A stretch of 64,000 nt of DNA from Escherichia coli (GTDB lineage: Bacteria > Pseudomonadota > Gammaproteobacteria > Enterobacterales > Enterobacteriaceae): assembly GCF_030384885.1 (NCBI RefSeq), contig NZ_CP128613.1; one strand, written 5' to 3'. The notes below the pieces were generated by a model. That model was not told where the DNA came from. It did no database searches and saw nothing but the letters and a program-made list of their open reading frames with translations. This document shows positions 11,246-55,230 of the stretch, piece by piece. Numbering within the stretch: position 1 is the first letter of the stretch; each line of letters opens with the position of its first letter. The position numbers and the translations under genes were made by a program.

Positions 11246-11800
11246 ATGACCCTACGCAAGATTCTGGCACTCACCTGCCTGCTGTTGCCGATGATGGCTT
11301 CCGCACATCAGTTTGAAACCGGTCAACGAGTGCCACCGATAGGCATTACCGATCGGGGCGAGTTAGTGCTTGATAAAGATCAGTTTAGCTACAAAACCTG
11401 GAACAGCGCGCAGTTAGTGGGAAAAGTGCGAGTACTGCAACATATTGCTGGTCGCACCTCTGCAAAAGAGAAAAACGCGACGCTGATTGAAGCGATTAAA
11501 TCAGCAAAGTTACCGCACGATCGTTACCAGACCACCACCATTGTGAACACCGACGACGCGATTCCGGGTTCTGGCATGTTTGTGCGCAGCAGTCTGGAGA
11601 GTAATAAAAAACTTTATCCCTGGTCGCAGTTTATTGTCGATAGCAATGGCATCGCGCGCGGTGCCTGGCAGCTGGATGAAGAAAGTTCCGCTGTAGCGGT
11701 GCTGGATAAAGACGGTCGAGTGCAATGGGCCAAAGACGGTGCGCTCACTCAGGAAGAGGTGCAGCAAGTGATGAACCTGCTGCAAAAGTTGCTCAAATAA
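11246..11800 (+). CDS. ytfJ: Periplasmic protein YtfJ
   Basis: 184-aa ORF with signal peptide (…MMASAHQ); synteny. Confidence 0.9.
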   Translation: MTLRKILALTCLLLPMMASAHQFETGQRVPPIGITDRGELVLDKDQFSYKTWNSAQLVGKVRVLQHIAGRTSAKEKNATLIEAIKSAKLPHDRYQTTTIVNTDDAIPGSGMFVRSSLESNKKLYPWSQFIVDSNGIARGAWQLDEESSAVAVLDKDGRVQWAKDGALTQEEVQQVMNLLQKLLK

Positions 11801-11830
11801 TGTTAATAACATAAATTCTGGAAAAATAAA

Positions 11831-11862
11831 TTTCCCCTATCGATATATATGGGATAGGGGAA
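11831..11862. terminator. Bidirectional intrinsic terminator between ytfJ and ytfI
   Basis: Hairpin tcccctatc-gatatatat-gggatagggga with A/T runs on both sides. Confidence 0.65.
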
Positions 11863-11900
11863 TTAAGTCTCTGAGTTTTTACGCCGAACTCATACTAGTA

Positions 11901-12824
11901 TCAATAACCCTTATTCGCGTTTAACGGTTTTACCTCTTTTTTAAACGCTTCAATGGTAGATTTATATTTCTTGTGAATCTTTTCTTCGGTATAATTACCG
12001 TTTGCGGCCAGATTTGCACTTACAATCGCTTCCACTTGCTCGGTTATTTCCACTTGTTGGTAACCTGCATCAACCAGAAAATTATAAATAAGAGAGTAAT
12101 CTTCACCCTGCAAAAAAATATAAGAGCCAGTTCGAAGTTCCTCATCCCCTCCATAGATTTTAAGAGCAAAGCCCAAAGATTCTATGACCATGGCATAATT
12201 TCTATTATTTATTTCCTCGCAAAAATACCATCCTTCACATTCTTTAATGCTACCTTCTGGCCCTTCAAGTTCAAATTTACCCCGTTTTAATTTGCTTACT
12301 ACATTCTCCAAATAAGCAGAATTGTAAGATAAGTTACCCGCCGCCTTCCGAAAATAACCGTTAATCCTTTCAGGTATGTCAGACTGTTTTTTCTGCAAAA
12401 TATCATAGGTATACAATCTTCTATTTTGTGCTAGTGGAAATTCACGGTTTTTAAAGTCTATAAATGAGTTATACTCATTTATTGTTATAGGGATTTCTTC
12501 GTATTCAAATCCAGTGCCTCGCAATGTCATTGTATATTCGGCACCGTTATCTTTAAGGCGGAAGCTGATAAGAAAATTATCCATGGAGTGAACGGTTTCA
12601 TCTTTTAATGAAAGCACCTGATAACTATTTTTATCGATCTGTGTTGCTCTAAGAAAGAACTCCCTTAAAATTAACAAACTATCATAATTCGAAATCCAAT
12701 CCCTTTTCTTAAATGCATGCTGAATATTATTAAAGAAATTATTTGAATGTATTTTTGTATGCGATGACTTTACAAATAACTCCACTGCACCAAAAAAATT
12801 ATTGTGTCTGATCTTGGGTAACAT
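11901..12824 (-). CDS. ytfI: Uncharacterized protein YtfI, AT-rich
   Basis: 307-aa ORF, markedly AT-rich versus flanks; no motif I recognise; position between ytfJ and cysQ as in K-12. Confidence 0.8.
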   Translation of the reverse strand: MLPKIRHNNFFGAVELFVKSSHTKIHSNNFFNNIQHAFKKRDWISNYDSLLILREFFLRATQIDKNSYQVLSLKDETVHSMDNFLISFRLKDNGAEYTMTLRGTGFEYEEIPITINEYNSFIDFKNREFPLAQNRRLYTYDILQKKQSDIPERINGYFRKAAGNLSYNSAYLENVVSKLKRGKFELEGPEGSIKECEGWYFCEEINNRNYAMVIESLGFALKIYGGDEELRTGSYIFLQGEDYSLIYNFLVDAGYQQVEITEQVEAIVSANLAANGNYTEEKIHKKYKSTIEAFKKEVKPLNANKGY

Positions 12825-13036
12825 ATGACAACCTTATTATATTTGGTTATTCTATGTCGCCATTAAATATCTTATTAAAGAAGTAAACTATCAAAAAAAG
12901 CTCATTATTAAAACATAACTTATTAACGTTAGAATATTTACACTTTAAATACAATCCCTTTATATCTATAACTTTTTAGGTTGGAAACAAATCAGGATGG
13001 CAGAATCAGGAAATACACTGTTTCTGCCATATATAT

Positions 13037-13777
13037 TTAATAAATAGAGACTCTGAACCCAGGATTCAGGAACGACTCGCGCGGGGTATAATCCAGCGGT
13101 TTACCCTGCCAGTCGTGAACGTGTGCTCCGGCCGCTGCCGCAACTGCGTGACCGGCAGCGGTATCCCAAATATTAGTTGGCCCGAAACGCGGATAGAGTT
13201 GAGCCTGCCCTTCCGCCACCAGGCAGAATTTCAGCGAAGAGCCGATAGACGTGGTTTGATGTTCGCCAAGCTGTTGCAGATACTCTTTCAGCTCCGCATC
13301 CGCATGGGAACGGCTGATCACCACCAGCGGCGGGCGCGCATCGCGGACCTGAATCTGCTTGCGTACACCGCACTCTTCTTTCCAGGCTTTGCCGTCTGCC
13401 GCGCTGTACATTACGTTCATTACCGGCGCATACACCACACCTAAAATCGGTTTGCCGTGGTCGATGAGCGCAATATTAACGGTGAATTCACCATTACGTT
13501 TAATAAACTCTTTAGTACCATCCAGCGGGTCTACCAGCCAGTAACGCTGCCAGTGTTGACGGACTTCCCAACCGGGAGGATCTTCTTCAGAAAGGACCGG
13601 AATATCCGGTGTCAGCGTACGTAAACCGTCCATGATAACGGTGTGTGCGGCAATATCCGCTGCCGTTACCGGAGAATTGTCCGCTTTGCTGACGACGTCC
13701 ATCGGTTTCGTCCCGTCGTAGACCTGCATAATGGCATCGCCTGCATTCCGTGCAAGCTGGCATACTTGATCTAACAT
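13037..13777 (-). CDS. cysQ: 3'(2'),5'-bisphosphate nucleotidase CysQ
   Basis: 246-aa ORF with inositol-monophosphatase-family motifs (DPLDGT, WDTAAG). Confidence 0.95.
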
Positions 13778-13966
13778 TTCTCCACCTCGTCTCTGTGAGC
13801 GGTGTTAACTTGTTGTTTTACTTATACCCTATCGTTAAAGAATGCGCCAACTGTGATAGTGTCATCATTTTCAAAGCGTTAAATTGTGGCATTCTTCACT
13901 GTTCTAAAAGTAAGAGGTTTATTCTCCCTTTTCTTTCGAATTCCCGATGATAAAAGGATGTCCCTG

Positions 13967-21810: not shown

Positions 21811-22449
21811 ATGCCCGGGCGCTTTGAACTAAAACCAACCCTGGAGAAAGTCTGGCACGCGCCGGACAATTTTCGCTTCATGGACCCGCTACCGCCGATG
21901 CATCGTCGGGGGATCATTATTGCCGCTATTGTATTGGTGGTCGGATTTCTACTCCCGTCTGATGATACGCCAAACGCGCCGGTGGTGACGCGTGAAGCAC
22001 AGTTAGATATTCAGTCGCAATCACAACCGCCGACAGAAGAACAGCTGCGGGCGCAATTAGTCACACCACAAAATGATCCTGATCAGGTGGCTCCGGTCGC
22101 TCCAGAACCGATACAGGAAGGCCAACCGGAAGAGCAGCCGCAAACCTCGCAAGTGCAACCTTTCCAGCCAGATAGCGGAATTGACAATCAATGGCGCTCT
22201 TACCGTGTCGAACCCGGTAAAACGATGGCGCAGCTGTTCCGCGACCACGGACTGCCCGCTACCGATGTCTATGCAATGGCGCAGGTAGAAGGCGCGGGTA
22301 AGCCGCTGAGTAATTTGCAAAACGGGCAGATGGTGAAAATCCGCCAGAATGCCAGCGGCGTGGTGACGGGCTTAACCATTGATACGGGGAATAATCAACA
22401 GGTCCTGTTTACCCGCCAGCCGGATGGGAGTTTTATTCGTGCGCGGTAG
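21811..22449 (+). CDS. ytfB: Cell-division protein YtfB (OapA-domain)
   Basis: Start set at [13 protein letters not shown] (212 aa); TM segment then Pro/Gln-rich linker; 3' end overlaps the convergent TetR gene. Confidence 0.88.
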
Positions 22450-23080
22450 ATGAAGGGTCAACCAAAAGCCAGCTAAGGATTGTCTCTTTGATGACCTTAC
22501 GCCTGGCTTCCAGTGCCTGCGGTGAAACCATACTGATGTGATAAACCAGGCCAAGCGTATGCTGGTTGATCAAATAATATCCTCCAAGAGCAGCAATATT
22601 AATATTCACCTGCAACGGGTCGATATCTGGCTTAAAAATATTGCGCCGTTTGCCTTCAGCTAATAATGACTCCATTAACTGTAAGTGTGCGTGGTTAATT
22701 TCTAAAAGGCGCTGTGATTTTGCATAATGCACCCCTTTACTCTGGTTTTCACTATGCACAATTTTTAAAAACCAGGGGTTAGCAATGTAATAATCCCAGG
22801 TGAAATCGATAATTTTCTCAATGGCTTTTTGTGGCGGAAGACCTGAGAAATCAAGGGATTTTTCTTTTTGCCGAATATCATTCCAGGTATATTCCAGCAC
22901 TTCGATAAATAAATTTTCTTTATTACCAAAGTGATGATAAACCGTCTGTTTACTGCACTCCGCGGCCTTGACGATATTATCGACTCTGGCCCCTTCGTAA
23001 CCATATTCGGCAAATTCATTAACCGCACATAACAACAGCTTTTCCTTCAGGCTTTGTACGTTGCTGGTATCAAGATACAT
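22433..23080 (-). CDS. TetR/AcrR-family transcriptional regulator
   Basis: N-terminal HTH ([28 protein letters not shown]) typical of TetR; ATG at 23080 preferred over the GTG at 23140 used by the ORF track; divergent from the downstream operon. Confidence 0.8.
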
Positions 23081-23202
23081 TCCGCTTCCCCACGTCTTCT
23101 TCGTGATGACTATCTTAACCCGATTTGTTAGAAGCTCCACTAAAATGGCTAAAAACTCGCAATTTCATCGGGTTATCAAATGCTCTGTGATCATTATCGC
23201 AT

Positions 23203-23224
23203 ATCAACCAACTAGATGGTTGAT
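23203..23224. promoter_or_regulatory. Candidate TetR operator (inverted repeat) in divergent promoter region
   Basis: atcaacca-actaga-tggttgat, 8-bp perfect arms, between the TetR gene and the SDR gene; inference. Confidence 0.35.
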
Positions 23225-23291
23225 CTTTCTTGCCACACATTGCAAGCTAATCGTCACTTAAGGAAATAATATTCAAAAAGAGGGTTATTGT

Positions 23292-24083
23292 ATGAAGTCA
23301 ACACGTCCTGTTGCTGTCATCACTGGAGCCGCACGTGGTATTGGAAAGGGCTGTGCACTGGAACTTGCGCGTGGCGGATTTAATCTGCTGATTAATGATC
23401 GTCCGGATGCCGACAGCGTAGAAAAATTACATGCCACACAACAAGAATGTCTGGCGGAAGGCGTGGAAGTGATTTGCTTCCCTGCTGATGTTGGCGATCT
23501 CTCCCTTCATGAAGAGATGCTCGACGCGGCGCAAAACCAGTGGGGACGTCTGGACTGTCTACTCAACAACGCAGGCATTTCAGTGAAAAAACGCGGTGAC
23601 CTCCTCGACCTCGAACCAGACAGCTTCGACCAAAACATTGCCATTAACACCCGTGCGCCGTTCTTCCTTGCTCAGGCATTCAGTAAGCGATTACTGGCAC
23701 AGCCGAAACCGGAAGCAGAACTGCCGCACCGCTCGATTATTTTTGTCAGTTCCATAAACGCCATCATGCTGGCGATGAATCGCGGCGAATATACCATTGC
23801 CAAAACTGCCGTCTCCGCCGCAGCTCGTCTGTTTGCCGCTCGCCTTTGCAATGAACAAATTGGCGTTTATGAAGTGCGCCCTGGCCTAATCAAAACCGAT
23901 ATGACCATTCCGGCAACGGCTTATTACGACGAACTGATTGCTAAGGGGTTAGTGCCGTGGGGACGTTGGGGTTATCCGGCTGATATTGCCTCAACGGTCC
24001 GCGCGATGGCGGAAGGCAAACTGATTTACACCTGTGGTCAGGCGGTCGCCATCGACGGCGGCTTAAGTATGCCGCGCTTCTGA
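23292..24083 (+). CDS. Short-chain dehydrogenase/reductase (SDR)
   Basis: TGAARGIG cofactor motif, NNAG, and Ser...Y-x3-K catalytic motif (YTIAK) read directly. Confidence 0.85.
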   Translation: MKSTRPVAVITGAARGIGKGCALELARGGFNLLINDRPDADSVEKLHATQQECLAEGVEVICFPADVGDLSLHEEMLDAAQNQWGRLDCLLNNAGISVKKRGDLLDLEPDSFDQNIAINTRAPFFLAQAFSKRLLAQPKPEAELPHRSIIFVSSINAIMLAMNRGEYTIAKTAVSAAARLFAARLCNEQIGVYEVRPGLIKTDMTIPATAYYDELIAKGLVPWGRWGYPADIASTVRAMAEGKLIYTCGQAVAIDGGLSMPRF

Positions 24084-24092
24084 GGCTGAATC

Positions 24093-24935
24093 ATGAGAGA
24101 TCTGTTACAACGCCCGGATTTATTCAGTATCAATACTGCGACACTGGGCTATAAAACGCCGCTACCTGCCATTATTGATGCCTGCGCCGCACGCGGTATT
24201 GGCGCGATTGCCCCCTGGCGCAGGGAGTTACAGGGTGAAGATCTCCAGCAAATCGCCCGCCAGCTTGCTGCCAGTAACATGAGCGTTTCCGGTTTGTGTC
24301 GTAGCACCTATTACACCGCGCCGACGCTGACGGAACGCAAACTGGCGATTGATGATAACCGCCGGGCGCTGGACGACGCCGCTGTACTGAACGCCGCCTG
24401 TTATATGCAGGTGGTTGGCGGTCTGCCAATGGGAACAAAAGATCTGTACGAAGCGCGGGAACAAGTGAAACAAGGGATTCGCCAGTTGCTGCCACATTCG
24501 AAAGATGTCGGCGTGCCAATTGCGCTGGAGCCGCTGCACCCGATGACAGCTGCCGATCGCTCTTGCCTGTGCACGTTACGTCAGGCGCTGGACTGGTGTG
24601 ATGAACTCGATCCCGATGGGGAGTTTGGCCTCGGCGTGGCGGTGGATGTTTATCACGTCTGGTGGGACCCGGATCTCGCCAGTCAGATCCTGCGTGCCGG
24701 AAAACGCATCCTCGCGTTTCATGTTTCCGACTGGCTGGTGCCAACCACCGATTTAGTCAATGACCGGGGAATGCCGGGAGATGGCGTAATCAATATTCCG
24801 TCTATTCGTCGCCAGGTAGAAAATGCCGGATTTAACGGTGCTGTGGAACTGGAAATTTTCTCACCGTACTGGTGGCAGCAAGATATTAACAGCACGTTGG
24901 ATATTAGCGTCGATCGCATCGCGCATTATTGCTAA
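24093..24935 (+). CDS. Sugar-phosphate isomerase/epimerase-like (xylose-isomerase-type TIM barrel) protein
   Basis: 280-aa ORF; family assignment by overall resemblance only (…AFHVSDW…), no database check. Confidence 0.55.
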   Translation: MRDLLQRPDLFSINTATLGYKTPLPAIIDACAARGIGAIAPWRRELQGEDLQQIARQLAASNMSVSGLCRSTYYTAPTLTERKLAIDDNRRALDDAAVLNAACYMQVVGGLPMGTKDLYEAREQVKQGIRQLLPHSKDVGVPIALEPLHPMTAADRSCLCTLRQALDWCDELDPDGEFGLGVAVDVYHVWWDPDLASQILRAGKRILAFHVSDWLVPTTDLVNDRGMPGDGVINIPSIRRQVENAGFNGAVELEIFSPYWWQQDINSTLDISVDRIAHYC

Positions 24936-24938
24936 GGA

Positions 24939-25721
24939 ATGATCATGAGTGACCAACCCGTTCTGTTCAGCAGAGCGGCGGCTTCCTGCCGCCTGACATT
25001 GAACCGTGAAGATAAATGTCATGCTATTAATGAAGAAATGATCGAATCTCTCGACCATTATTTAAATGAAATTGAAAACGACACCACATTACGATTAGTC
25101 GAATTAACGGCAACCGGCGATAAATTCTTTTGTGCAGGCGGCGATATTAAATCGTGGTCAGCCTATTCGCCATTAGATATGGGCAGAAAATGGATTAAAC
25201 GCGGCAATGACGTTTTTAATCGCCTGCGCAATTTACCTCAATTAACGGTTGCGAATCTCAACGGTCATACCATCGGCGGTGGTATTGAACTTGCCTTGTG
25301 CTGCGATATTCGTATTGCTCGCCCCGGCGCGAAATTCTCTAATCCGGAAGTAATGCTCGGCATGGTGCCTGGCTGGATGGGCATTGAACGCGTGCTTAAT
25401 CAGGTCGGTCCGGTGGTCGGTCGCCAGATGCTGATGCTGGGTAAACGCCTGACGGCGCAGGAAGCTCAGGCAGCGAATTTAATTGATGAAGTGGTAGAAA
25501 AAGAACAGGTGGAAAGCTGGATGGCGAATCAGTTAGCGCAGCTGGAAAAATGCGGTCCGGTGGCGCTCGCACATATCAAGCAACTGATTCTGGCTCTAGA
25601 AAATAAACATGCTGATTACCCGCACCAGTTACTGGCTGGATTAATGTCCGCCACTCAGGATTGCCAGCAGGCGACGCGCGCATTTGCCGAAAAAAGTAGC
25701 GTGAGCTTCCAAAATCAATAA
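24939..25721 (+). CDS. Enoyl-CoA hydratase/isomerase (crotonase family)
   Basis: Crotonase signatures FFCAGGDIKSW and GHTIGGGIELALCCDIRIA. Confidence 0.85.
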   Translation: MIMSDQPVLFSRAAASCRLTLNREDKCHAINEEMIESLDHYLNEIENDTTLRLVELTATGDKFFCAGGDIKSWSAYSPLDMGRKWIKRGNDVFNRLRNLPQLTVANLNGHTIGGGIELALCCDIRIARPGAKFSNPEVMLGMVPGWMGIERVLNQVGPVVGRQMLMLGKRLTAQEAQAANLIDEVVEKEQVESWMANQLAQLEKCGPVALAHIKQLILALENKHADYPHQLLAGLMSATQDCQQATRAFAEKSSVSFQNQ

Positions 25722-25730
25722 GGAAATTGT

Positions 25731-27272
25731 ATGCGTAAGATAACAACCGCCGAGACACTGGCGGCGCAAATTCAGGACGGTGCAACCATTGCCATTAGCG
25801 GTAATGGCGGCGGCATGGTGGAAGCGGACCATATTCTGGCTGCTATTGAAGCGCGTTTCCTGCAAACCGGACACCCGCGCGATCTGACATTAATCCACTC
25901 GCTGGGCATTGGCGATCGCGACTGCAAAGGCACTAACCGCTTCGCTCATGCAGATATGCTCAAACGCATCATTGCCGGACATTTTACCTGGTCGCCCAAG
26001 ATGCAGGATCTGGTGAAAAACAATGCTATTGAAGCCTACTGCTTCCCTGGTGGCGTAATTCAGGCACTGCTGCGGGAGATCGGTGCCGGACGTCCAGGGC
26101 TTTTTACCCACGTTGGACTGGGATCGTTTGTTGATCCGCGCAACGGCGGCGGTAAGTCGAACGCCAGCACCACTGAGGATCTGGTAGAACTGATTGAAAT
26201 CGACGGTGAAACCAAACTTCGTTATCGCCCTTTCAAAGTGGATTACGCGATTTTGCGTGGCACTTATGCCGATCCTCGAGGCAACGTCAGCCTTGAAGAA
26301 GAGGCGATTGATATGGATAGCTATTCCATGGCGCTGGCAGCACACAACAGCGGTGGCAAAGTGTTCGTACAGGTGCGCGATGTGCTGGAAGCTGGTGCCA
26401 TTGAACCACGCCGGGTCAAATTACCGGGCATTCTGGTTGATGGCATCGTTGAACACCGCGAACAACCGCAAACATATCTTGGCGGTTACGACCTGACCAT
26501 CAGCGGTCAGCACCGCCGTTTAAGTTCTAACGACGCTATTGAACTGGTTACTCATCCGGTGCGCCGCCTGATTGCCCGTCGGGCAGCACGCGAACTGGTG
26601 GCTGGCGCTTCAACCAACTTTGGCTTTGGCATTCCCGGCGGCATTCCTGGGGTTGCACTGCGCGAAGGCGTGCCTTATCAAAGTTTATGGCTGAGCGTCG
26701 AGCAAGGCGTGCATAACGGTATGATGCTGGATGATGCTCTGTTCGGCTGCGCCCGTAACGCCGATGCCATTATTCCATCACTCGATCAATTCGAATTCTA
26801 CAGTGGCGGAGGGATCGATATCACCTTCCTCGGCATGGGAGAGATGGATCAGCATGGTAACGTCAACGTCTCCCATCTCAATGGCAATCTCATTGGCCCC
26901 GGCGGATTTCTCGAAATTGCGCAAAACGCCCGTAAAGTGGTGTTCTGTGGCACGTTCGACGCCAAAGGTAGCAAGATTGATGTAACACCAGATGGCTTGC
27001 ATATCGCCCAGTCAGGTCAAATCCCTAAACTGGTTACCCAAGTGGAAAAAATCACTTTTAGCGCCGCCTACGCACAGCAAAGCGGTCAGGAAGTGTTGTA
27101 TATCACTGAACGTGCAGTATTCCAATTAACAGCAGAAGGCGTTGAATTAATTGAAATCGCACCAGGTGTGGAGATTGAGCGCGACATTCTGCCATATATG
27201 GCTTTCCGTCCAATTATCAATCAGCCACGCCTGATGGAAAGTAGCCTGTTTACGCCGATGGAGGATGCATGA
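25731..27272 (+). CDS. Family-I CoA-transferase (YdiF/acetate CoA-transferase-like, fused A/B subunits)
   Basis: 513-aa ORF; long stretches resemble E. coli YdiF as I recall it (…VGLGSFVDPRNGGGK…); 3' end overlaps the next gene (ATGA). Confidence 0.8.
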   Translation: MRKITTAETLAAQIQDGATIAISGNGGGMVEADHILAAIEARFLQTGHPRDLTLIHSLGIGDRDCKGTNRFAHADMLKRIIAGHFTWSPKMQDLVKNNAIEAYCFPGGVIQALLREIGAGRPGLFTHVGLGSFVDPRNGGGKSNASTTEDLVELIEIDGETKLRYRPFKVDYAILRGTYADPRGNVSLEEEAIDMDSYSMALAAHNSGGKVFVQVRDVLEAGAIEPRRVKLPGILVDGIVEHREQPQTYLGGYDLTISGQHRRLSSNDAIELVTHPVRRLIARRAARELVAGASTNFGFGIPGGIPGVALREGVPYQSLWLSVEQGVHNGMMLDDALFGCARNADAIIPSLDQFEFYSGGGIDITFLGMGEMDQHGNVNVSHLNGNLIGPGGFLEIAQNARKVVFCGTFDAKGSKIDVTPDGLHIAQSGQIPKLVTQVEKITFSAAYAQQSGQEVLYITERAVFQLTAEGVELIEIAPGVEIERDILPYMAFRPIINQPRLMESSLFTPMEDA

Positions 27273-29350
27273 GTCAGCTTGATGACACCCTCCTTGATGC
27301 GCTGACGCATGTCACTTTCCCGAAGGGTTTTGCACAGGCAGAACCCGCATGGGTTGTCACGGTAGACGGTGTTGATTACCCACTCTGGCAAACAGATGCC
27401 CTGGTAGTCGGCAGTGGTGCAGCCGGGCTGCGTGCAGCTGTGGAACTTAAACGCCGCCAGCAAAATGTGTTGATCGCCACTGCCGGGTTATATATGGGGA
27501 CGTCGGCATGTTCTGGTTCCGATAAACAGACACTGTTTACCGCCGCTACCGCGGGCAATGGCGACAACTTCACCAAACTGGCAGAGGCACTGGCGAGCGG
27601 TGGAGCGATGGATCACGACACCGCTTATGTCGAAGCGGTAGGTTCTCTGCACACTCTTGGCGGGTTGCAATATCTTGGTCTGGAATTACCGGAAGATCGC
27701 TATGGCGCGATTCTTCGTTATCAAACCGACCATGACGAAGCCGGGCGTGCAACCTCGTGTGGGCCGCGTACCTCAAGGTTAATGGTGAAAGTGCTGTTGG
27801 AAGAAGTGCAGCGCCTCGCCATTCCAGTGTTGACCAGTGCAACAGTGATTAAACTGCTGCATCAGCGTGACGAAAACGGCGAAGACTGCGTGGCGGGGGC
27901 AATCCTCGCGACCGGTCATCGCGCCCATAACCCATGGGGGCTGGCAATTGTGACTGCGCCCAATGTGGTGCTGGCAACAGGAGGGCCTGGCGAGCTTTAT
28001 CGAGACAGTGTGTACCCACATAAATGCTTCGGCTCGCTGGGGCTGGCGCTGGAAGAAGGTCTGACGCTAACCAATCTGACCGAAAGCCAGTTTGGTATTG
28101 GCACGCCACGCAACACCTTTCCGTGGAATTTGTCCGGCACCTATGTACAGGTGATCCCATATATCTATTCCGTAGATGCTGAGGGCAACGAGTATAACTT
28201 CCTCACGGATTACTATCGAACTACCCAGGAACTGGCTTCAAACATCTTCCGTAAAGGCTATCAGTGGCCGTTTCACGCCACACGAGTGATGGATTTTGGC
28301 TCCAGCTTGTTAGATATGGCAGTAGCGCAAGAGCAGCAATCAGGGCGTCAGGTATTTATGGATTTCAATCGCAATCCTGAACCTGTGCCGGGTGACATGC
28401 CGTTCTCATTAGATCGACTGGACGACGACGTTCGCGCGTATCTGGAAAATAACGACGCTCTGGCACCATCGCCCATCGAACGACTGCAACGAATGAATCC
28501 GCTGTCTATCTCGCTGTATAAGATGCACGGTTACGATCTCACCACGCAGCCATTGCAGTTTGCCATGAATAATCAGCATATGAATGGCGGCATTGAAGTG
28601 GATATCTGGGGGCAAACCTCCCTGCCCGGCTGTTTCGCCGTGGGGGAAGTTGCTGGCACACACGGCGTTACCCGACCTGGCGGTGCGGCGCTGAATGCCG
28701 GACAGGTATTTGCCGTGCGACTGGCACGTTTTATTGGTTGCACACAAAAGCGGTCCGTTGAGGATGATATCGCGCAGCTGGTAGCCTCACCTCTGCATAC
28801 AATCAGAGAAGTTATCGCTCAGGCACTGGCAAACGAGAACGGAATGACGCTGGCAACGGTGAAAGAAAAAATCCAGGCGCGAATGTCTGATTACGCGGGA
28901 TTTATTTGCCATGCTGATAAAGTTCGTCACGCCGCCCGTGACGCCATGCTGTTAAATGAATTTGCGCAGCAACATGGTCTAACTATCAACCACGCCGGTG
29001 AAATTGCCGAGCTATTTATGTGGCGGCATATGGCATTAACATCCGCTGCGGTGTTAAGCCAGCTATCACATTATATTGATGCTGGCGGTGGTAGTCGTGG
29101 AGCACGGATGATTATTGATCCACAAGGAGAATATCTTCCACAAACTCGTCGCGGCGCAATCGAAGATTGGCGTTTTCGCTCTGAACAAGCTGAAGATAAA
29201 AATCACAGACTAACTCTCTCCTTTTCACAAGGTTTATTTATTAATGAAATTAAGTTCTTGAGAAACTTACCGCATATTAAAGGTATTTACTTTGAGAAGA
29301 ATTGGCCTGATTTTCTTAACGGAACAATTTATCAGACACGGCATGAATAA
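27269..29350 (+). CDS. FAD-dependent oxidoreductase (fumarate reductase/succinate dehydrogenase/L-aspartate oxidase-like flavoprotein)
   Basis: Dinucleotide-binding motif VVGSGAAGLRAA, HMNGG and GEVAGTHGVTRPGGAALN motifs of the FAD_binding_2 family; 693 aa with an AT-rich C-terminal tail. Confidence 0.75.
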   Translation: MSQLDDTLLDALTHVTFPKGFAQAEPAWVVTVDGVDYPLWQTDALVVGSGAAGLRAAVELKRRQQNVLIATAGLYMGTSACSGSDKQTLFTAATAGNGDNFTKLAEALASGGAMDHDTAYVEAVGSLHTLGGLQYLGLELPEDRYGAILRYQTDHDEAGRATSCGPRTSRLMVKVLLEEVQRLAIPVLTSATVIKLLHQRDENGEDCVAGAILATGHRAHNPWGLAIVTAPNVVLATGGPGELYRDSVYPHKCFGSLGLALEEGLTLTNLTESQFGIGTPRNTFPWNLSGTYVQVIPYIYSVDAEGNEYNFLTDYYRTTQELASNIFRKGYQWPFHATRVMDFGSSLLDMAVAQEQQSGRQVFMDFNRNPEPVPGDMPFSLDRLDDDVRAYLENNDALAPSPIERLQRMNPLSISLYKMHGYDLTTQPLQFAMNNQHMNGGIEVDIWGQTSLPGCFAVGEVAGTHGVTRPGGAALNAGQVFAVRLARFIGCTQKRSVEDDIAQLVASPLHTIREVIAQALANENGMTLATVKEKIQARMSDYAGFICHADKVRHAARDAMLLNEFAQQHGLTINHAGEIAELFMWRHMALTSAAVLSQLSHYIDAGGGSRGARMIIDPQGEYLPQTRRGAIEDWRFRSEQAEDKNHRLTLSFSQGLFINEIKFLRNLPHIKGIYFEKNWPDFLNGTIYQTRHE

Positions 29351-29370
29351 TATTGCAAAGGTTAATCACT

Positions 29371-29847
29371 ATGCGAAATATAATCAGATCTATTAATTCA
29401 TTGCTTTCCACGTTGAACATTACCATTTTGGCAATTATTGTGATGTGCGTTACATGGCAAGTAGTAGCACGATTTATCTTTAAAAGCCCCAGCATTTTTA
29501 CAGATGAACTTAGTCGTTTACTATTTATTTGTCTTGGACTTTTTGGTGGTGCTTATACTGCCGGACAAAACCGACATCTGGCCATTGATCTTCTGCCAAT
29601 GATGCTAAAAGGAAAATCCCGACGTTATTTATTCTTATGTATTCAGGCCATTGTTATTCTTTTTGCCTCTATCATTATGGTTTATGGTGGCGGGTTATTA
29701 ACACTGGACACATTTGATTCAGGGCAAACTTCTCCGGCTTTAGGCTGGCAGATGGGATATATTTACATGAGCATTCCAATAAGTGGCATCCTTATTATTA
29801 TATACACCATAGATACAGTTTTAACCGAACTTAAACAACCACTCTAA
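29371..29847 (+). CDS. TRAP transporter small permease (DctQ-like)
   Basis: About 158 aa with 4 predicted TM helices; ATG at 29371 with upstream aaagg preferred over the TTG at 29353; directly upstream of DctM. Confidence 0.75.
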   Translation: MRNIIRSINSLLSTLNITILAIIVMCVTWQVVARFIFKSPSIFTDELSRLLFICLGLFGGAYTAGQNRHLAIDLLPMMLKGKSRRYLFLCIQAIVILFASIIMVYGGGLLTLDTFDSGQTSPALGWQMGYIYMSIPISGILIIIYTIDTVLTELKQPL

Positions 29848-29869
29848 AATAAGTAGGGATGGAGAAAAC

Positions 29870-31171
29870 ATGGATTACTGGTTACCGATCATTGTGTTAT
29901 TTGGTTCTTTCTTTTTTATGTTGGCATTAGGTGTTCCTATTGTCTATGCTATTGGTTTATCAACACTGGCATCAATTACTACACAACTCGATTTCAACTC
30001 AGCATTGAGTGTGGTTTCACAAAAGTTAGCCTCCGGGTTAGATAGTTTTACGTTGTTGGCAATCCCATTTTTTATCTTGTCTGGCAACATTATGAATCAT
30101 GGAGGAATAGCGCGACGATTAATCAACTTTGCCCGTATTCTCGGCGGTCGTCTGCCAGGCTCACTTGCTCACTGTAATATTCTTGCCAATATGCTGTTCG
30201 GGGCAATTTCTGGTTCAGCTGTTGCTTCGGCGGCTGCGATGGGCGGCGTCATGCATCCACAGCAGGTTAAAGAGGGTTACGACCCGGCATTCAGTACCGC
30301 TGTTAACGTTGCCTCTGCACCGACAGGTTTACTTATTCCACCCAGTAATACGTTAATTGTCTTTTCACTGGTCAGTGGTGGTACTTCTATTGCCGCACTG
30401 TTCCTGGCAGGATATGTCCCGGGAATTTTATTGGGCCTGGCGCTGATGACTGTGGCTGGTATTATCGCGGTACGCCGGGGTTATCCAAAACCAGAACGTC
30501 CGACTTTGCGCCAGGCTGGAGTGGCAATATGGATGGCGATCCCCAGTATTTTCCTGATTGTATTAATTATGGGTGGTGTACTAAGCGGTATTTTTACCCC
30601 GACAGAAGCATCTGCAATTGCGGTAATTTATACCCTTTTCCTTGCACTGGTTCTTTATCGTGAAATATCAGTTAAAGATTTACCTAAGATATTTCTGGAG
30701 TCCGTCATTACCACTGCAATTGTCTTGTTGTTAATTGGTTCTTCAATGGGAATGTCATGGGCAATGTCAAACGCTGACGTTCCCTTCCTGATTCTCGATT
30801 TGCTTAACACTATTTCTGATAATCCAATAATAATCCTGCTTATTATCAATATTATTCTGTTGATTATCGGCACATTTATGGATATGACACCGGCAGTACT
30901 GATTTTTACGCCGATATTTTTACCCGTTGTCACCGAACTGGGCATGGACCCGATTCACTTTGGTATTGTCATGGTACTGAACATGTGTATCGGTATTTGT
31001 ACTCCGCCTGTAGGCAGTGTGTTATTTGTCGGTTGTAGTGTATCTAAATTACCGATTAATAAAATTATCAAACCTATGCTGCCCTTCTATGCCGTGATGG
31101 TATTGGTGCTGGCTATGGTGACCTATATTCCGCAAATCAGTATGGCATTGCCAAGAGCACTGGGCTACTGA
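29870..31171 (+). CDS. TRAP transporter large permease (DctM-like)
   Basis: 433-aa polytopic membrane protein; size and hydrophobicity pattern typical of DctM. Confidence 0.85.
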   Translation: MDYWLPIIVLFGSFFFMLALGVPIVYAIGLSTLASITTQLDFNSALSVVSQKLASGLDSFTLLAIPFFILSGNIMNHGGIARRLINFARILGGRLPGSLAHCNILANMLFGAISGSAVASAAAMGGVMHPQQVKEGYDPAFSTAVNVASAPTGLLIPPSNTLIVFSLVSGGTSIAALFLAGYVPGILLGLALMTVAGIIAVRRGYPKPERPTLRQAGVAIWMAIPSIFLIVLIMGGVLSGIFTPTEASAIAVIYTLFLALVLYREISVKDLPKIFLESVITTAIVLLLIGSSMGMSWAMSNADVPFLILDLLNTISDNPIIILLIINIILLIIGTFMDMTPAVLIFTPIFLPVVTELGMDPIHFGIVMVLNMCIGICTPPVGSVLFVGCSVSKLPINKIIKPMLPFYAVMVLVLAMVTYIPQISMALPRALGY

Positions 31172-31223
31172 TGCGCATTCACTGGCGGCTCCTGCCGCCA
31201 TATTTATTAGAAAAGGAACATCT

Positions 31224-32195
31224 ATGAAAATAAAAGTATCCGCTGGCATTATCGGTGCTGTTCTTATGTTATCTGCAGGCCAGTCCTGGGCAGTAACATT
31301 AAAACTTAGCCATAATCAGGATAAATCTCATCCTGTTCATAAAGCGATGGAGTTCTTTGCGAAAAAGAGCAAAGAGTACTCTAACGGTGATATTACTATT
31401 CGTATTTATCCAAATGGAACATTGGGTACTCAACGAGAAACAATGGAGCTGATTCGTTCTGGTGCTATTCCGCTGGTAAAAACCAATGCGGCGGAGATGG
31501 AAGCCTTCGAGAGTTCGTATAAAATATTTAGCCTGCCTTATTTGTTCCGCGATCGTGATCATTATTATCAGGTCATGCAAGGCGATATCGGAAGGAAAAT
31601 CCTCGACTCAACGAAAAACAAAGGTTATTTCGGTCTGACTTTCTATGATGGAGGCGCCCGCAGCTTCTACGGCAATAAACCGGTGCTGAAACCAGACGAT
31701 CTCAAAGGAATGAAAGTTCGTGTCCAGCCAAGCCCAGGGGCAGTTGAGATGATCAAAGTCATGGGAGGTAACCCAACACCGCTGGATTATGGAGAGTTGT
31801 ACACAGCATTGCAGCAAGGTGTGGTTGATATGGCGGAAAACAGTGTGATGGCGCTGACCACCATGCGCCACGGTGAAGTAGCAAAATCCTTCAGCCTTGA
31901 CGAACACACTATGGTTCCTGATGTGGTTCTAATGAGCAATGCTTCGTTTGATAAGCTTAGCCCGGAAAATCAGGCAGCTATATTAAAAGCAGCTAAAGAA
32001 TCAATGAGCTACATGAAAGACTTGTGGAGCGAGGAAGAGAAAAAAGAATTCGCTAAACTGGATCAAATGGGCGTGAAAGTCTACAAGGTTGATAAAGCAC
32101 CGTTTATCGAGAAAGTGCAGCCGATGTACGCAGCCTTTGCTAAGGAAAACCCTGCTCTCGCCCCAATGCTAACTGATATTCAGGCGACTAAGTAA
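31224..32195 (+). CDS. TRAP transporter substrate-binding protein (DctP-like), periplasmic
   Basis: 323 aa, signal peptide MKIKVSAGIIGAVLMLSAGQSWA; DctP-size soluble protein adjacent to DctQM. Confidence 0.8.
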   Translation: MKIKVSAGIIGAVLMLSAGQSWAVTLKLSHNQDKSHPVHKAMEFFAKKSKEYSNGDITIRIYPNGTLGTQRETMELIRSGAIPLVKTNAAEMEAFESSYKIFSLPYLFRDRDHYYQVMQGDIGRKILDSTKNKGYFGLTFYDGGARSFYGNKPVLKPDDLKGMKVRVQPSPGAVEMIKVMGGNPTPLDYGELYTALQQGVVDMAENSVMALTTMRHGEVAKSFSLDEHTMVPDVVLMSNASFDKLSPENQAAILKAAKESMSYMKDLWSEEEKKEFAKLDQMGVKVYKVDKAPFIEKVQPMYAAFAKENPALAPMLTDIQATK

Positions 32196-46935: not shown

Positions 46936-47595
46936 TTAACCAATAATATGAAGTGATGTCAGTGGGATATCAACACCCAGTGCGCGCGAAAATAACCACT
47001 CCGGCTCGCCGAGATCGTTAAAAGATTCCTCACCATTTAACAGCAAATATTCACAGGTATCTTCGGTCACCTGCCGTTCATAGCCCATGGTAAAATTATG
47101 CACTTCCCATTTGGCGTGGTTTTGATTTTCAACTTTTTCCAGCATATAGACGGGTTCGATATTTCCCGGTTCTTCACTGTTAAAAAATCGCTGCCAGCGT
47201 TTTTCCTGCCAGTTTAATGTCATTGCCCCCATCGCTTTGGCGTTGATCGCTTCGCGCCAGTGGCTCTCTTTGCTGATACCGTAGCTCTCTTCATAGACAA
47301 AGAGCTTTATATCATCAATGTCATCAATATCTTCGCCGCCGGTGGTATTGATTTGCAGAAATTCATCGCCCGAAGTGTAGTAGCGGAAAATCTGACTACC
47401 GCCGCCCAGATCGATGTGGCTGACAGCGGCTACCGTAAATTCTTCACCCGGCAGCGCAATCAGCAATTCATCTTCCAGCAAACGAAACGCTAACGTGTCG
47501 AGCGTAAAGCCGCTATTGAGATGAAGTCCCAGTGGGCCACGTGCGATTGCAGGTTTATCATCCTTACCAAACAGACGCTTGAAAAAACTTGTCAT
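46936..47595 (-). CDS. yjfK: DUF2491 protein YjfK
   Basis: 219-aa ORF; its ATG overlaps the stop of the upstream RCK-domain ORF (ATGA). Confidence 0.88.
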   Translation of the reverse strand: MTSFFKRLFGKDDKPAIARGPLGLHLNSGFTLDTLAFRLLEDELLIALPGEEFTVAAVSHIDLGGGSQIFRYYTSGDEFLQINTTGGEDIDDIDDIKLFVYEESYGISKESHWREAINAKAMGAMTLNWQEKRWQRFFNSEEPGNIEPVYMLEKVENQNHAKWEVHNFTMGYERQVTEDTCEYLLLNGEESFNDLGEPEWLFSRALGVDIPLTSLHIIG

Positions 47596-48347
47596 ATGCT
47601 TCCCTCAATGTCCTGCCATGCCACTTCTTCAGCCAAAATACGGTTATTGCCAATAAGATGCAGCCACATACCGCCTTTAACTTCCGTTGCAATGACTGGA
47701 TTCAGTTCCATTCCCCTACCATTTTTACAACTGCTTATTCCCAGGACGGTGGCATCATGATGAAGTTTCATATAATGCATCAATGCGCCATAACGCATTG
47801 AGGTAACCCGTTCAGGAATCGGTAAAACAAACCCCGTATCCCCCAGCATTGGATTCATAATCGATGCCACTGATTGAGATGAACCGGGATCTTGTATTGA
47901 ACGGGAAAGTTGTTCTGCTGAAATATTTCGCACTATTTCAATACGTTGACAATGAACCTCTAATAAACGAGCGTAGCGTTCATCTTCCAGATAAGCGACG
48001 ATATGGCATCTTTCAGGAATAAAATCCGCCAGGGATAGTGCGGTCGTGAACGTCTGCTCATCTGTTTGCGAAAAGATGATGACACTTTGGCAATTTGCCA
48101 GTCCCATGCGGGTATGTTCATGCGGATCATTAAAATTACTAATACGAATGAAATCGACCCAATTATTTCCAGGCATCGGATGTTGAATATCATCCCGCTC
48201 ACACAAAAGTACCCGGCCAAATGCTCTTCGGGAATCAAACAACAATAATGAAATCATCTTTTCAGTCTGATGCCCGCGCCATCCAATGACCAGCATATGG
48301 TTGCGCAAATTGCTGTAGTCGCCCATTCCCGTCATTCCTTTCGCCAA
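47592..48347 (-). CDS. RCK/TrkA-like cytoplasmic domain protein (C-terminal half of a Kch/MthK-like K+ channel)
   Basis: Rossmann-like start …HMLVIGWRGHQTEKMISLL… and later segments resemble TrkA-N/TrkA-C by eye; ORF track starts at TTG 48347, but in-frame ATGs at 48335 and 48326 follow an AAAGGA Shine-Dalgarno-like sequence; same frame as the pore ORF. Confidence 0.6.
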   Translation of the reverse strand: MAKGMTGMGDYSNLRNHMLVIGWRGHQTEKMISLLLFDSRRAFGRVLLCERDDIQHPMPGNNWVDFIRISNFNDPHEHTRMGLANCQSVIIFSQTDEQTFTTALSLADFIPERCHIVAYLEDERYARLLEVHCQRIEIVRNISAEQLSRSIQDPGSSQSVASIMNPMLGDTGFVLPIPERVTSMRYGALMHYMKLHHDATVLGISSCKNGRGMELNPVIATEVKGGMWLHLIGNNRILAEEVAWQDIEGSI

Positions 48348-48353
48348 TATGTC

Positions 48354-48662
48354 TTACACTAATGCAATGACTTTTCCCATTAAAGCGCCAAATAAACCAA
48401 CACTCACAGGAATCTGCCAGAGCGCTGTGAACAGACGTCCCCCCACCGTTTGGGGTGTGATATCACCAAACCCCAGCGTTGATCCCACAACCGAGCAGTA
48501 ATAAATAAAATTACTAAGTTGTCCTACCAACGCCTCTTCATGCAACGCAGTTAACACCAGATAACAAAACAGATACTGTCCTGTAAATAATCCAGTCAAT
48601 GCCGGCCAGGTAAGCCTGGAAAGGTGACGTCGGCAGGTTTTAATGATCCATGAGAAGAACAT
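48354..48662 (-). CDS. Two-TM potassium-channel pore domain protein (selectivity filter TLGFGD)
   Basis: 102 aa: hydrophobic M1, pore helix + GSTLGFGDITP (T-x-G-[YF]-G-D K+ filter), hydrophobic M2; ATG overlaps yjfJ stop (TAATG); ends at a TAA in frame with the RCK ORF. Confidence 0.65.
   Translation of the reverse strand: MFFSWIIKTCRRHLSRLTWPALTGLFTGQYLFCYLVLTALHEEALVGQLSNFIYYCSVVGSTLGFGDITPQTVGGRLFTALWQIPVSVGLFGALMGKVIALV

Positions 48663-53928: not shown

Positions 53929-55230
<1,302 letters not shown>

Follow-up and report, generated by a model that had tools for sequence, protein, structure and literature searches.

The gene ytfI, encoded on the minus strand of the 64,000-nucleotide stretch of Escherichia coli DNA analysed here (contig NZ_CP128613.1; below, the window), lies with its upstream region on an AT-rich islet between ytfJ and cysQ. 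This islet is a derived insertion, and the protein YtfI is without relatives outside Escherichia and Shigella among approximately 15 billion proteins. We consider it probable that ytfI represents an old, Escherichia-restricted orphan islet that is silenced by H-NS. Over its length the window shows 100% identity to the chromosome of E. coli strain 2013C-4282 (NZ_CP027579.1). The surrounding gene order is tamB-tamA-msrA-paeA(ytfL)-ytfK-ytfJ-[ytfI]-cysQ-cpdB-ytfH, in which the genes flanking ytfI are housekeeping genes.

Base composition sets the islet apart from these neighbors. The guanine-plus-cytosine (GC) content of the ytfI open reading frame (ORF) is 0.343 and that of its upstream region 0.259, compared with 0.541 in cysQ, 0.510 in ytfJ, and 0.5075 in the whole window, in agreement with a first-pass annotation that had described ytfI, and especially the DNA upstream of it, as much more AT-rich than cysQ and ytfJ. 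The interval on which that annotation was centered (positions 11863-13036) has a GC content of 0.329 (z = -3.7 to -4.2 versus all windows of the same length in the 64 kb). This is within 0.004 of the minimum, making it essentially the lowest-GC kilobase of the stretch, and the complete islet (GC 0.33 versus 0.51 for the window) likewise lies far from the average. GC is low in ytfI at all three codon positions (0.41/0.30/0.32, versus 0.64/0.42/0.56 in cysQ). The features of the islet are as follows.

11785..13036: the ytfI islet, 1,252 bp at 33% GC, replacing 8 bp of the ancestral ytfJ/cysQ junction (junction alignment)
11785..11800, plus strand: 3' end of ytfJ rewritten by the islet, encoding ...QKLLK* (184 aa) in place of the ancestral ...HKL[LI]xK* (185 aa)
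11832..11862: hairpin with a perfect 10-bp stem, where the 3' ends of ytfJ and ytfI converge (inverted repeat, -20.6 kcal/mol)
11901..12824, minus strand: ytfI coding sequence, 307 aa plus stop, ATG start (ORF list)
12825..13036, minus strand: ytfI upstream region, 212 bp, GC 0.259, with promoter-like hexamers
12832..12835, minus strand: Shine-Dalgarno-like AAGG, 7 nt upstream of the ATG
12849..12894, minus strand: two overlapping sigma-70-like promoter candidates, TTGATA-17-GATATT and TTAATA-18-TAGAAT (consensus scan)
12997..13030, minus strand: hairpin just 3' of the cysQ stop, 13-nt arms, 92% complementary, -17 kcal/mol, z -4.8

Insertion, alleles and age of the islet

The boundaries of the islet were defined by alignment with K-12 and with an E. 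coli in which the site is empty (L004). In empty-site E. coli, the convergent genes ytfJ and cysQ overlap by 11 bp, and the same overlap, likewise without the islet, is present in Salmonella enterica and E. marmotae. The YtfJ proteins of Salmonella, Citrobacter, Klebsiella, E. fergusonii, E. marmotae, and empty-site E. coli are 185 aa long and end in LLHKLxxK/R. Those of islet-bearing genomes are 184 aa long and end in LLQKLLK, because the islet supplies the last ytfJ codons. Since the outgroups share both the 11-bp overlap and the 185-aa YtfJ, the empty site is ancestral and the islet is an insertion rather than the remnant of a deletion. No terminal inverted repeat, integrase, tRNA gene, or convincing target-site duplication is present at the islet, only short AT-rich microhomology. 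The islet is present in 1,603-1,610 of ~5,420 complete E. coli genomes (~30%). All sampled genomes among the ~70% without it span 1,287-1,288 bp from the start of ytfJ to the start of cysQ, the spacing of overlapping genes.

The protein encoded in the window is identical to K-12 YtfI (b4215, WP_000937655.1, 312 aa) at 229 of 297 positions (77%, E 5e-174), with no gaps. At the DNA level, ytfI is ~85% identical between the window and K-12 (~16% divergent), compared with 95-96% in the flanking genes. The name ytfI used in the first-pass annotation thus holds for the locus, on synteny and homology, while the allele itself is well removed from that of K-12. Judged on the same grounds, the window gene is a YtfI orthologue and a rare, divergent allele, and in RefSeq it is annotated as "hypothetical protein". 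Copies at least 95% identical to it occur in 20 of 5,426 complete E. coli genomes, and the K-12 type in ~1,600. The allele of purA (53929-55227) carried by this strain is similarly rare: it is found at 99% identity or more in 18 of 5,425 complete genomes, most others being 98.1-98.6% identical. This correspondence between ~20 and ~18 genomes points to inheritance within a rare lineage instead of recent transfer.

A third allele is carried by the divergent "E. coli" SCPM-O-B-8794 (L007), whose flanking genes are 89-90% identical to those of E. coli and which is distinct from E. marmotae and E. albertii. Its YtfI shares 68% aa identity, and its islet has the same junction and the same hairpins. 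The rate of synonymous substitution (dS) between the window and K-12 is 0.37 in ytfI and 0.13-0.24 in the flanks. Between the window and SCPM-O-B-8794, it is 0.86 in ytfI and 0.54-0.68 in the flanks. The occurrence of an identical junction in an Escherichia lineage this divergent shows that the acquisition is old, and the pattern agrees with one ancient insertion that then diverged along with its host lineages. The old horizontal acquisition proposed from composition alone is therefore borne out by the distribution of the islet and by its shared junction. The divergence between the window and K-12 also reaches ~100-200 bp into both flanking core genes (11700-11800 and 13100-13210), where identity is 91% at the 3' end of ytfJ and 83% at the 3' end of cysQ, versus 95-99% further out. 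Raised divergence beside the islet is as expected for old linked haplotypes.

The orphan status of YtfI was examined in several collections. When 5.8 billion protein clusters were searched with a word index, 17 matches with 65-98% identity were obtained, and all of those with a named source are labelled E. coli or Shigella. Among 1.84 billion representatives, an exhaustive profile search recovered 18 matches, all of them fragments of 38-166 aa with 64-100% identity to known alleles. Among single genomes representing 100,044 species, only two loci were recovered: that of SCPM-O-B-8794 and a 1.5-kb contig from a metagenome-assembled genome of "Collinsella sp." (JAIJJM010000759.1; L006). The latter is 97.5% identical to the cysQ-ytfI-ytfJ DNA of K-12 and is therefore almost certainly contamination. 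No match to ytfI was found in a phage collection, and the four matches in a plasmid collection are all megabase-scale E. coli replicons with a K-12-type gene. An origin in phages or plasmids was accordingly rejected, as there is neither a phage match nor a genuine plasmid copy. Thus, the remote-homology searches recovered copies and fragments from Escherichia and Shigella only.

Selection, conservation and probable H-NS silencing

Several islet-bearing genomes carry damaged copies of ytfI. In strain ETEC1738, an IS1 element (L003, 2246-2943) stands in place of the ytfJ 3' end and of ytfI, of which only part of the upstream region is left, and IS1 also interrupts the ytfI region in strain MB50. 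A cluster of 729 members consists of K-12-type genes with a 1-bp deletion in a run of seven T residues near codon 30, annotated as 251 aa (L009, 1134-2256), and hence represents a frameshift pseudogene. The window allele is without this homopolymer. These disrupted and frameshifted copies show that ytfI is dispensable.

Intact copies nonetheless bear the mark of selection on the protein. The ratio of nonsynonymous to synonymous substitution rates (dN/dS, or omega) is 0.39 between the window and K-12 (Fisher p 6e-7), 0.22 between the window and SCPM-O-B-8794 (p 5e-20), and 0.27 between K-12 and SCPM-O-B-8794 (p 2e-15), compared with 0.015-0.09 in the neighboring genes. The dN of ytfI is ~40 times that of cysQ. 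Residues 1-140 are the most constrained, with an omega of 0.1-0.3, and residues 141-240 the least, with values of 0.6-0.9 between the window and K-12. Omega never exceeds 1 in any 40-codon window. On the strength of these ratios, ytfI is a real protein-coding gene under weak constraint. Recombinant K-12 YtfI also features on a published proteome chip (PMC3229523).

Much of this record could also be produced by a decaying relic, or by a frame that was never functional and persists because H-NS silencing hides it from selection. Such a history would accommodate the 70% of strains that do without ytfI at no obvious cost, the recurrent frameshift and IS1 disruption, the high dN, the low-confidence structure predictions described below, and the lack of relatives anywhere. 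We regard it as unlikely. A frame of 307-312 codons has stayed open in three alleles separated by dS values of up to 0.86, its dN/dS is significantly below 1 and particularly low in the N-terminal half, and the start codon, the core of the Shine-Dalgarno sequence, and the upstream region have changed less than synonymous sites.

This upstream conservation can be quantified among the alleles of the window, K-12, and SCPM-O-B-8794. The upstream region is 79-89% identical among them. The differences (11-21%) compare with 29-51% at synonymous sites, such that the region diverges 2.4-2.6 times more slowly. The same ATG and the same TTGATA hexamer of one promoter candidate occur in all three alleles, as does the AGG core of the Shine-Dalgarno sequence (AAGG in K-12 and GAGG in SCPM-O-B-8794). 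The density of promoter-like hexamers upstream of ytfI in the consensus scan is not above the shuffled expectation.

The hairpin at 12997..13030 is invariant in the three alleles despite differing DNA around it, and it may serve as a cysQ terminator supplied by the islet. The hairpin at 11832-11862, likewise present in K-12 and SCPM-O-B-8794, is more stable than expected on the minus strand (z -3.2), where a T-rich run follows, and has a z of -2.0 on the plus strand. It is a candidate ytfI terminator, possibly a bidirectional one. A simple consensus terminator scan flagged neither hairpin. The suggestion that ytfI has terminators on both sides was therefore essentially right, except that the second hairpin would end cysQ rather than bound ytfI.

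The invariance of the cysQ hairpin, together with non-coding upstream DNA that is better conserved than synonymous sites, raises the question of whether it is the DNA and not the protein that is selected, with the islet separating and terminating ytfJ and cysQ and placing its neighbors under H-NS control. The reported spreading of H-NS to neighboring genes in K-12 (PMC4720273) and the independent gain by E. albertii of another AT-rich insert at this junction, again with a hairpin of its own, are both compatible with this. However, selection on the DNA leaves the purifying selection on amino acids unexplained, and most E. coli and all sampled outgroups manage with the overlapping arrangement, so that we consider this explanation quite unlikely.

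Published chromatin data are consistent with silencing of the islet. In a chromatin affinity precipitation sequencing (ChAP-seq) study (PMC4720273, S10 Fig), ytfI serves to illustrate H-NS binding to an inserted segment specific to K-12. Binding in K-12 extends from ytfI to cpdB, cysQ, ytfJ, and ytfK and is not present in SE11 and SE15, strains without ytfI (PMC4720273). The H-NS silencing proposed in the first-pass annotation is thus supported for the K-12 allele, and by extension the window allele may be silenced as well. In view of the binding reported for K-12 (PMC4720273), the region 12825..13036 is a likely area of H-NS nucleation. A sigma-32 chromatin immunoprecipitation signal at ytfI has been disputed as an artefact, and a literature search for b4215 returned nothing relevant.

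These observations suggest the following scenario. Approximately 1.25 kb of ~33% GC DNA from a foreign, untraceable source would have been inserted into the 11-bp ytfJ/cysQ overlap before E. coli split from at least one cryptic Escherichia lineage. It would have brought the ytfI gene, an AT-rich promoter region of its own, and two hairpins that now terminate cysQ and ytfI/ytfJ. Filled and empty sites would have coexisted since then, being kept or, probably, interchanged through homologous recombination in the flanking genes. Because the islet DNA is AT-rich, H-NS would nucleate on it and spread to the neighbors, as shown for the K-12 allele and presumed for that of the window. With H-NS in place, ytfI would normally be silent, evolve 3-10 times faster than core genes, and often be lost or broken, while intact copies would remain under purifying selection that is strongest over residues 1-140. 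We infer that YtfI is a dispensable, conditionally expressed accessory protein, possibly involved in stress tolerance, and not a toxin, an antitoxin, or a phage-defence effector.

Proposed toxin and defence functions, localization and fold

The first-pass annotation had pointed out that small, isolated, AT-rich genes between core genes are a common address for toxins and defence-like functions. YtfI could accordingly be a stand-alone anti-phage protein, an orphan immunity protein, or a toxin, with the fast-evolving central and C-terminal part reflecting an arms race. Features in keeping with this idea are the AT-richness and patchy distribution of an accessory gene with deep allelic divergence, the omega of 0.6-0.9 over residues 141-240, the lack of any family assignment that would exclude it, and the presence of a pentapeptide-repeat accessory gene at the same junction in E. 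albertii. Other lines of evidence argue against it, and we judge it improbable. There is no significant match to PADLOC-DB v2, in which the best hit is to Cas6b (E 0.005, 14.6 bits, covering 40 residues of a 240-position model). No defence, mobile-element, or toxin gene and no integrase lies next to ytfI, where the neighbors are core housekeeping genes. Within the islet there is no partner gene or RNA: the small ORFs are unremarkable and there is no Rfam match, for which reason a hidden small toxin gene or RNA was also rejected. Phage and true plasmid copies are lacking, as described above, omega stays at or below 1 throughout, and frameshifted and IS1-disrupted copies are common. Furthermore, the ytfI overexpression clone of the ASKA collection was one of 23 clones able to grow at three times the minimum inhibitory concentration of hypochlorous acid (HOCl), the gene being listed as uncharacterized (PMC8228696). 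Survival of this clone argues against strong toxicity, and its HOCl resistance is a weak lead to function. These comparisons lend no support to a role in toxicity or defence.

Family searches of YtfI against Pfam, NCBIfam, PADLOC, PHROGs, and PDB sequences returned nothing above threshold, as anticipated from the initial inspection, which had recognized no motif. The sub-threshold matches were rejected: LisH (19.2 bits), DUF4844, the Cas6b hit, and three PHROGs of unknown function (E at least 0.019). The best match in the PDB sequence profile search, the nitrogenase alpha chain (E 1.1), was dismissed as noise.

YtfI has a predicted mass of 35.8 kDa, an isoelectric point of 6.35, and a grand average of hydropathicity of -0.53. 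It contains no hydrophobic or transmembrane segment (maximum Kyte-Doolittle average over 19 residues, 0.54), and by inspection no signal-peptide-like N-terminus. Given the lack of both, it is probably soluble and cytoplasmic. AlphaFold2 models, built from a shallow family alignment, depict an alpha/beta protein with three N-terminal helices followed by two antiparallel beta-sheet regions, each with helices after it. Their confidence is low (predicted local distance difference test, pLDDT, of 54 for the full length and 62 for residues 150-307). A two-fold pseudo-repeat of beta-sheet plus helix was considered and rejected (hhalign probability 0.2%).

A Foldseek search of the full model against the PDB placed PUR-alpha repeats at the top (E 0.017), which could be taken to mean that YtfI is a very remote relative of the PUR/Whirly-like nucleic-acid-binding fold, or of the VirA/EspG effector fold, and shares its activity. 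This would be highly improbable. No Foldseek match reaches E <= 0.001, the query-normalized template modeling scores are at most 0.15, and the models compared have pLDDT values of 54-62. There is no match of YtfI to the EspG or PUR Pfam families even at E <= 10, and the pseudo-repeat noted above is unsupported.

Some of these results weigh against the interpretation of ytfI as an H-NS-silenced orphan islet without a defence role. The near-neutral evolution of residues 141-240 could mean diversifying selection instead of relaxed constraint. With models of such low confidence, a fold that would reveal a toxin or defence function could be missed. Lastly, six of the 93 matches in the window to an H-NS consensus fall in the islet, which makes up 2% of the window. 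AT-richness alone would account for this enrichment, and the scan therefore carries no information on H-NS.

Taken further, the same data would allow for YtfI being a new Escherichia-only family with an undescribed fold and a niche function kept since the split from the cryptic lineage, for example in oxidative or chlorine stress, or in single-protein defence or host interaction through the variable region 141-240. Under this proposal, the ends of ytfJ and cysQ would form a recurrent landing site for AT-rich single-gene cargo without mobile-element features. We consider this combination fairly unlikely.

Neighboring features, significance and known systems

Several other features of the window were recorded. 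Adjoining the islet, the cysQ-cpdB intergenic region (13844-13966, minus strand) has a strong Rfam match to the ES239 small RNA (RF02756; 149 bits versus a gathering cut-off of 62). In the ytfB-rplI interval, a cluster of ~10 kb (22433-32195) contains genes for a TetR-family regulator, a 3-ketoacyl-acyl carrier protein reductase, a sugar-phosphate isomerase, an enoyl-coenzyme A hydratase, a coenzyme A transferase, a flavin adenine dinucleotide (FAD) oxidoreductase, and a TRAP transporter. This cluster is not known to be present in K-12, and part of it (~29.0-29.7 kb) is low in GC. Within the yjfIJKLMC cluster, yjfK and yjfJ are separated by a gene for a "potassium channel family protein" (47592-48662), and the adjacent yjfJ/yjfI region at ~49.2-49.6 kb is a further low-GC patch.

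The islet is a clean, well-bounded example of a foreign AT-rich gene without relatives that persists as a presence/absence polymorphism, probably silenced by H-NS, with its frame still under selection. Its insertion rewrote the 3' end of one core gene (ytfJ) and would have given another (cysQ) a new terminator. What is new here includes where exactly the islet begins and ends, its identification as an insertion, the altered 3' end of ytfJ, and the deep allelic structure, as well as the strict orphan status at the scale of 15 billion proteins and the reuse of the same junction in E. albertii by an unrelated AT-rich gene. A junction that has been hit twice may be of interest for the study of integration hotspots without mobile-element signatures. 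In practical terms, the RefSeq annotation of the source strain misses the divergent allele as ytfI. Genes without relatives that are this long and measurably under selection make sensible targets in the search for new folds or functions.

LisH (PF08513), a dimerization motif found mainly in eukaryotes, offers a further comparison. Residues 244-257 (SLIYNFLVDAGYQQ), a LisH-like helix, fit its core LIxxYLxxxGY (E 0.0012), and four of the seven alleles match. However, the score of 19.2 bits is below the gathering cut-off of 21.6 bits, and the GY pair varies between alleles, being GC in K-12 and NY in SCPM-O-B-8794.

The nearest counterpart of the window islet is that of K-12, which occupies the same position in the order paeA-ytfK-ytfJ-ytfI-cysQ-cpdB. 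The junction sequences and hairpins are identical and the proteins are collinear over their full length, differing in the C-terminal tail (312 aa in K-12 versus 307 aa in the window).

At the ytfJ/cysQ junction, E. albertii has a different AT-rich gene, encoding a 385-aa pentapeptide-repeat protein (WP_001340718.1; L005, 2733-3890; L012, 3292-4449). Like the ytfI islet, this insert consists of a single AT-rich gene (33% GC, ~1.5 kb) at the same convergent junction, with its own hairpin 3' of cysQ. In contrast, its protein is unrelated to YtfI (Pfam Pentapeptide, E 7e-12), the gene is encoded on the other strand, and the two inserts have different junction sequences. The unrelated protein and differing junctions indicate an independent insertion event. 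The pentapeptide insert is also present in two RefSeq "E. coli" genomes, SCPM-O-B-7615 and SCPM-O-B-9504. The paeA and cysQ genes of SCPM-O-B-7615, the source of L005, are 99.7-99.8% identical to those of E. albertii, so this genome looks mislabelled.

In its high AT content (GC 0.33 versus 0.51) and its status as a derived insertion, the ytfI islet resembles the xenogeneic DNA that is silenced by H-NS. A study of E. coli ORFans describes them as AT-rich genes that occur unevenly, often in few strains, and have elevated non-synonymous diversity, yet are under purifying selection (PMC3514957). Compared with H-NS-silenced AT-rich ORFans as portrayed in PMC4720273 and PMC3514957, ytfI is likewise AT-rich and patchily distributed, has no relatives, and combines a raised dN with purifying selection. 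ORFans are reported to be shorter than other genes and mostly confined to single genomes (PMC3514957), whereas ytfI is old, encodes 307 aa, and occurs in ~30% of strains. The ytfI islet, and the K-12 allele in particular, is therefore of a kind that is already known, the H-NS-silenced orphan islet.

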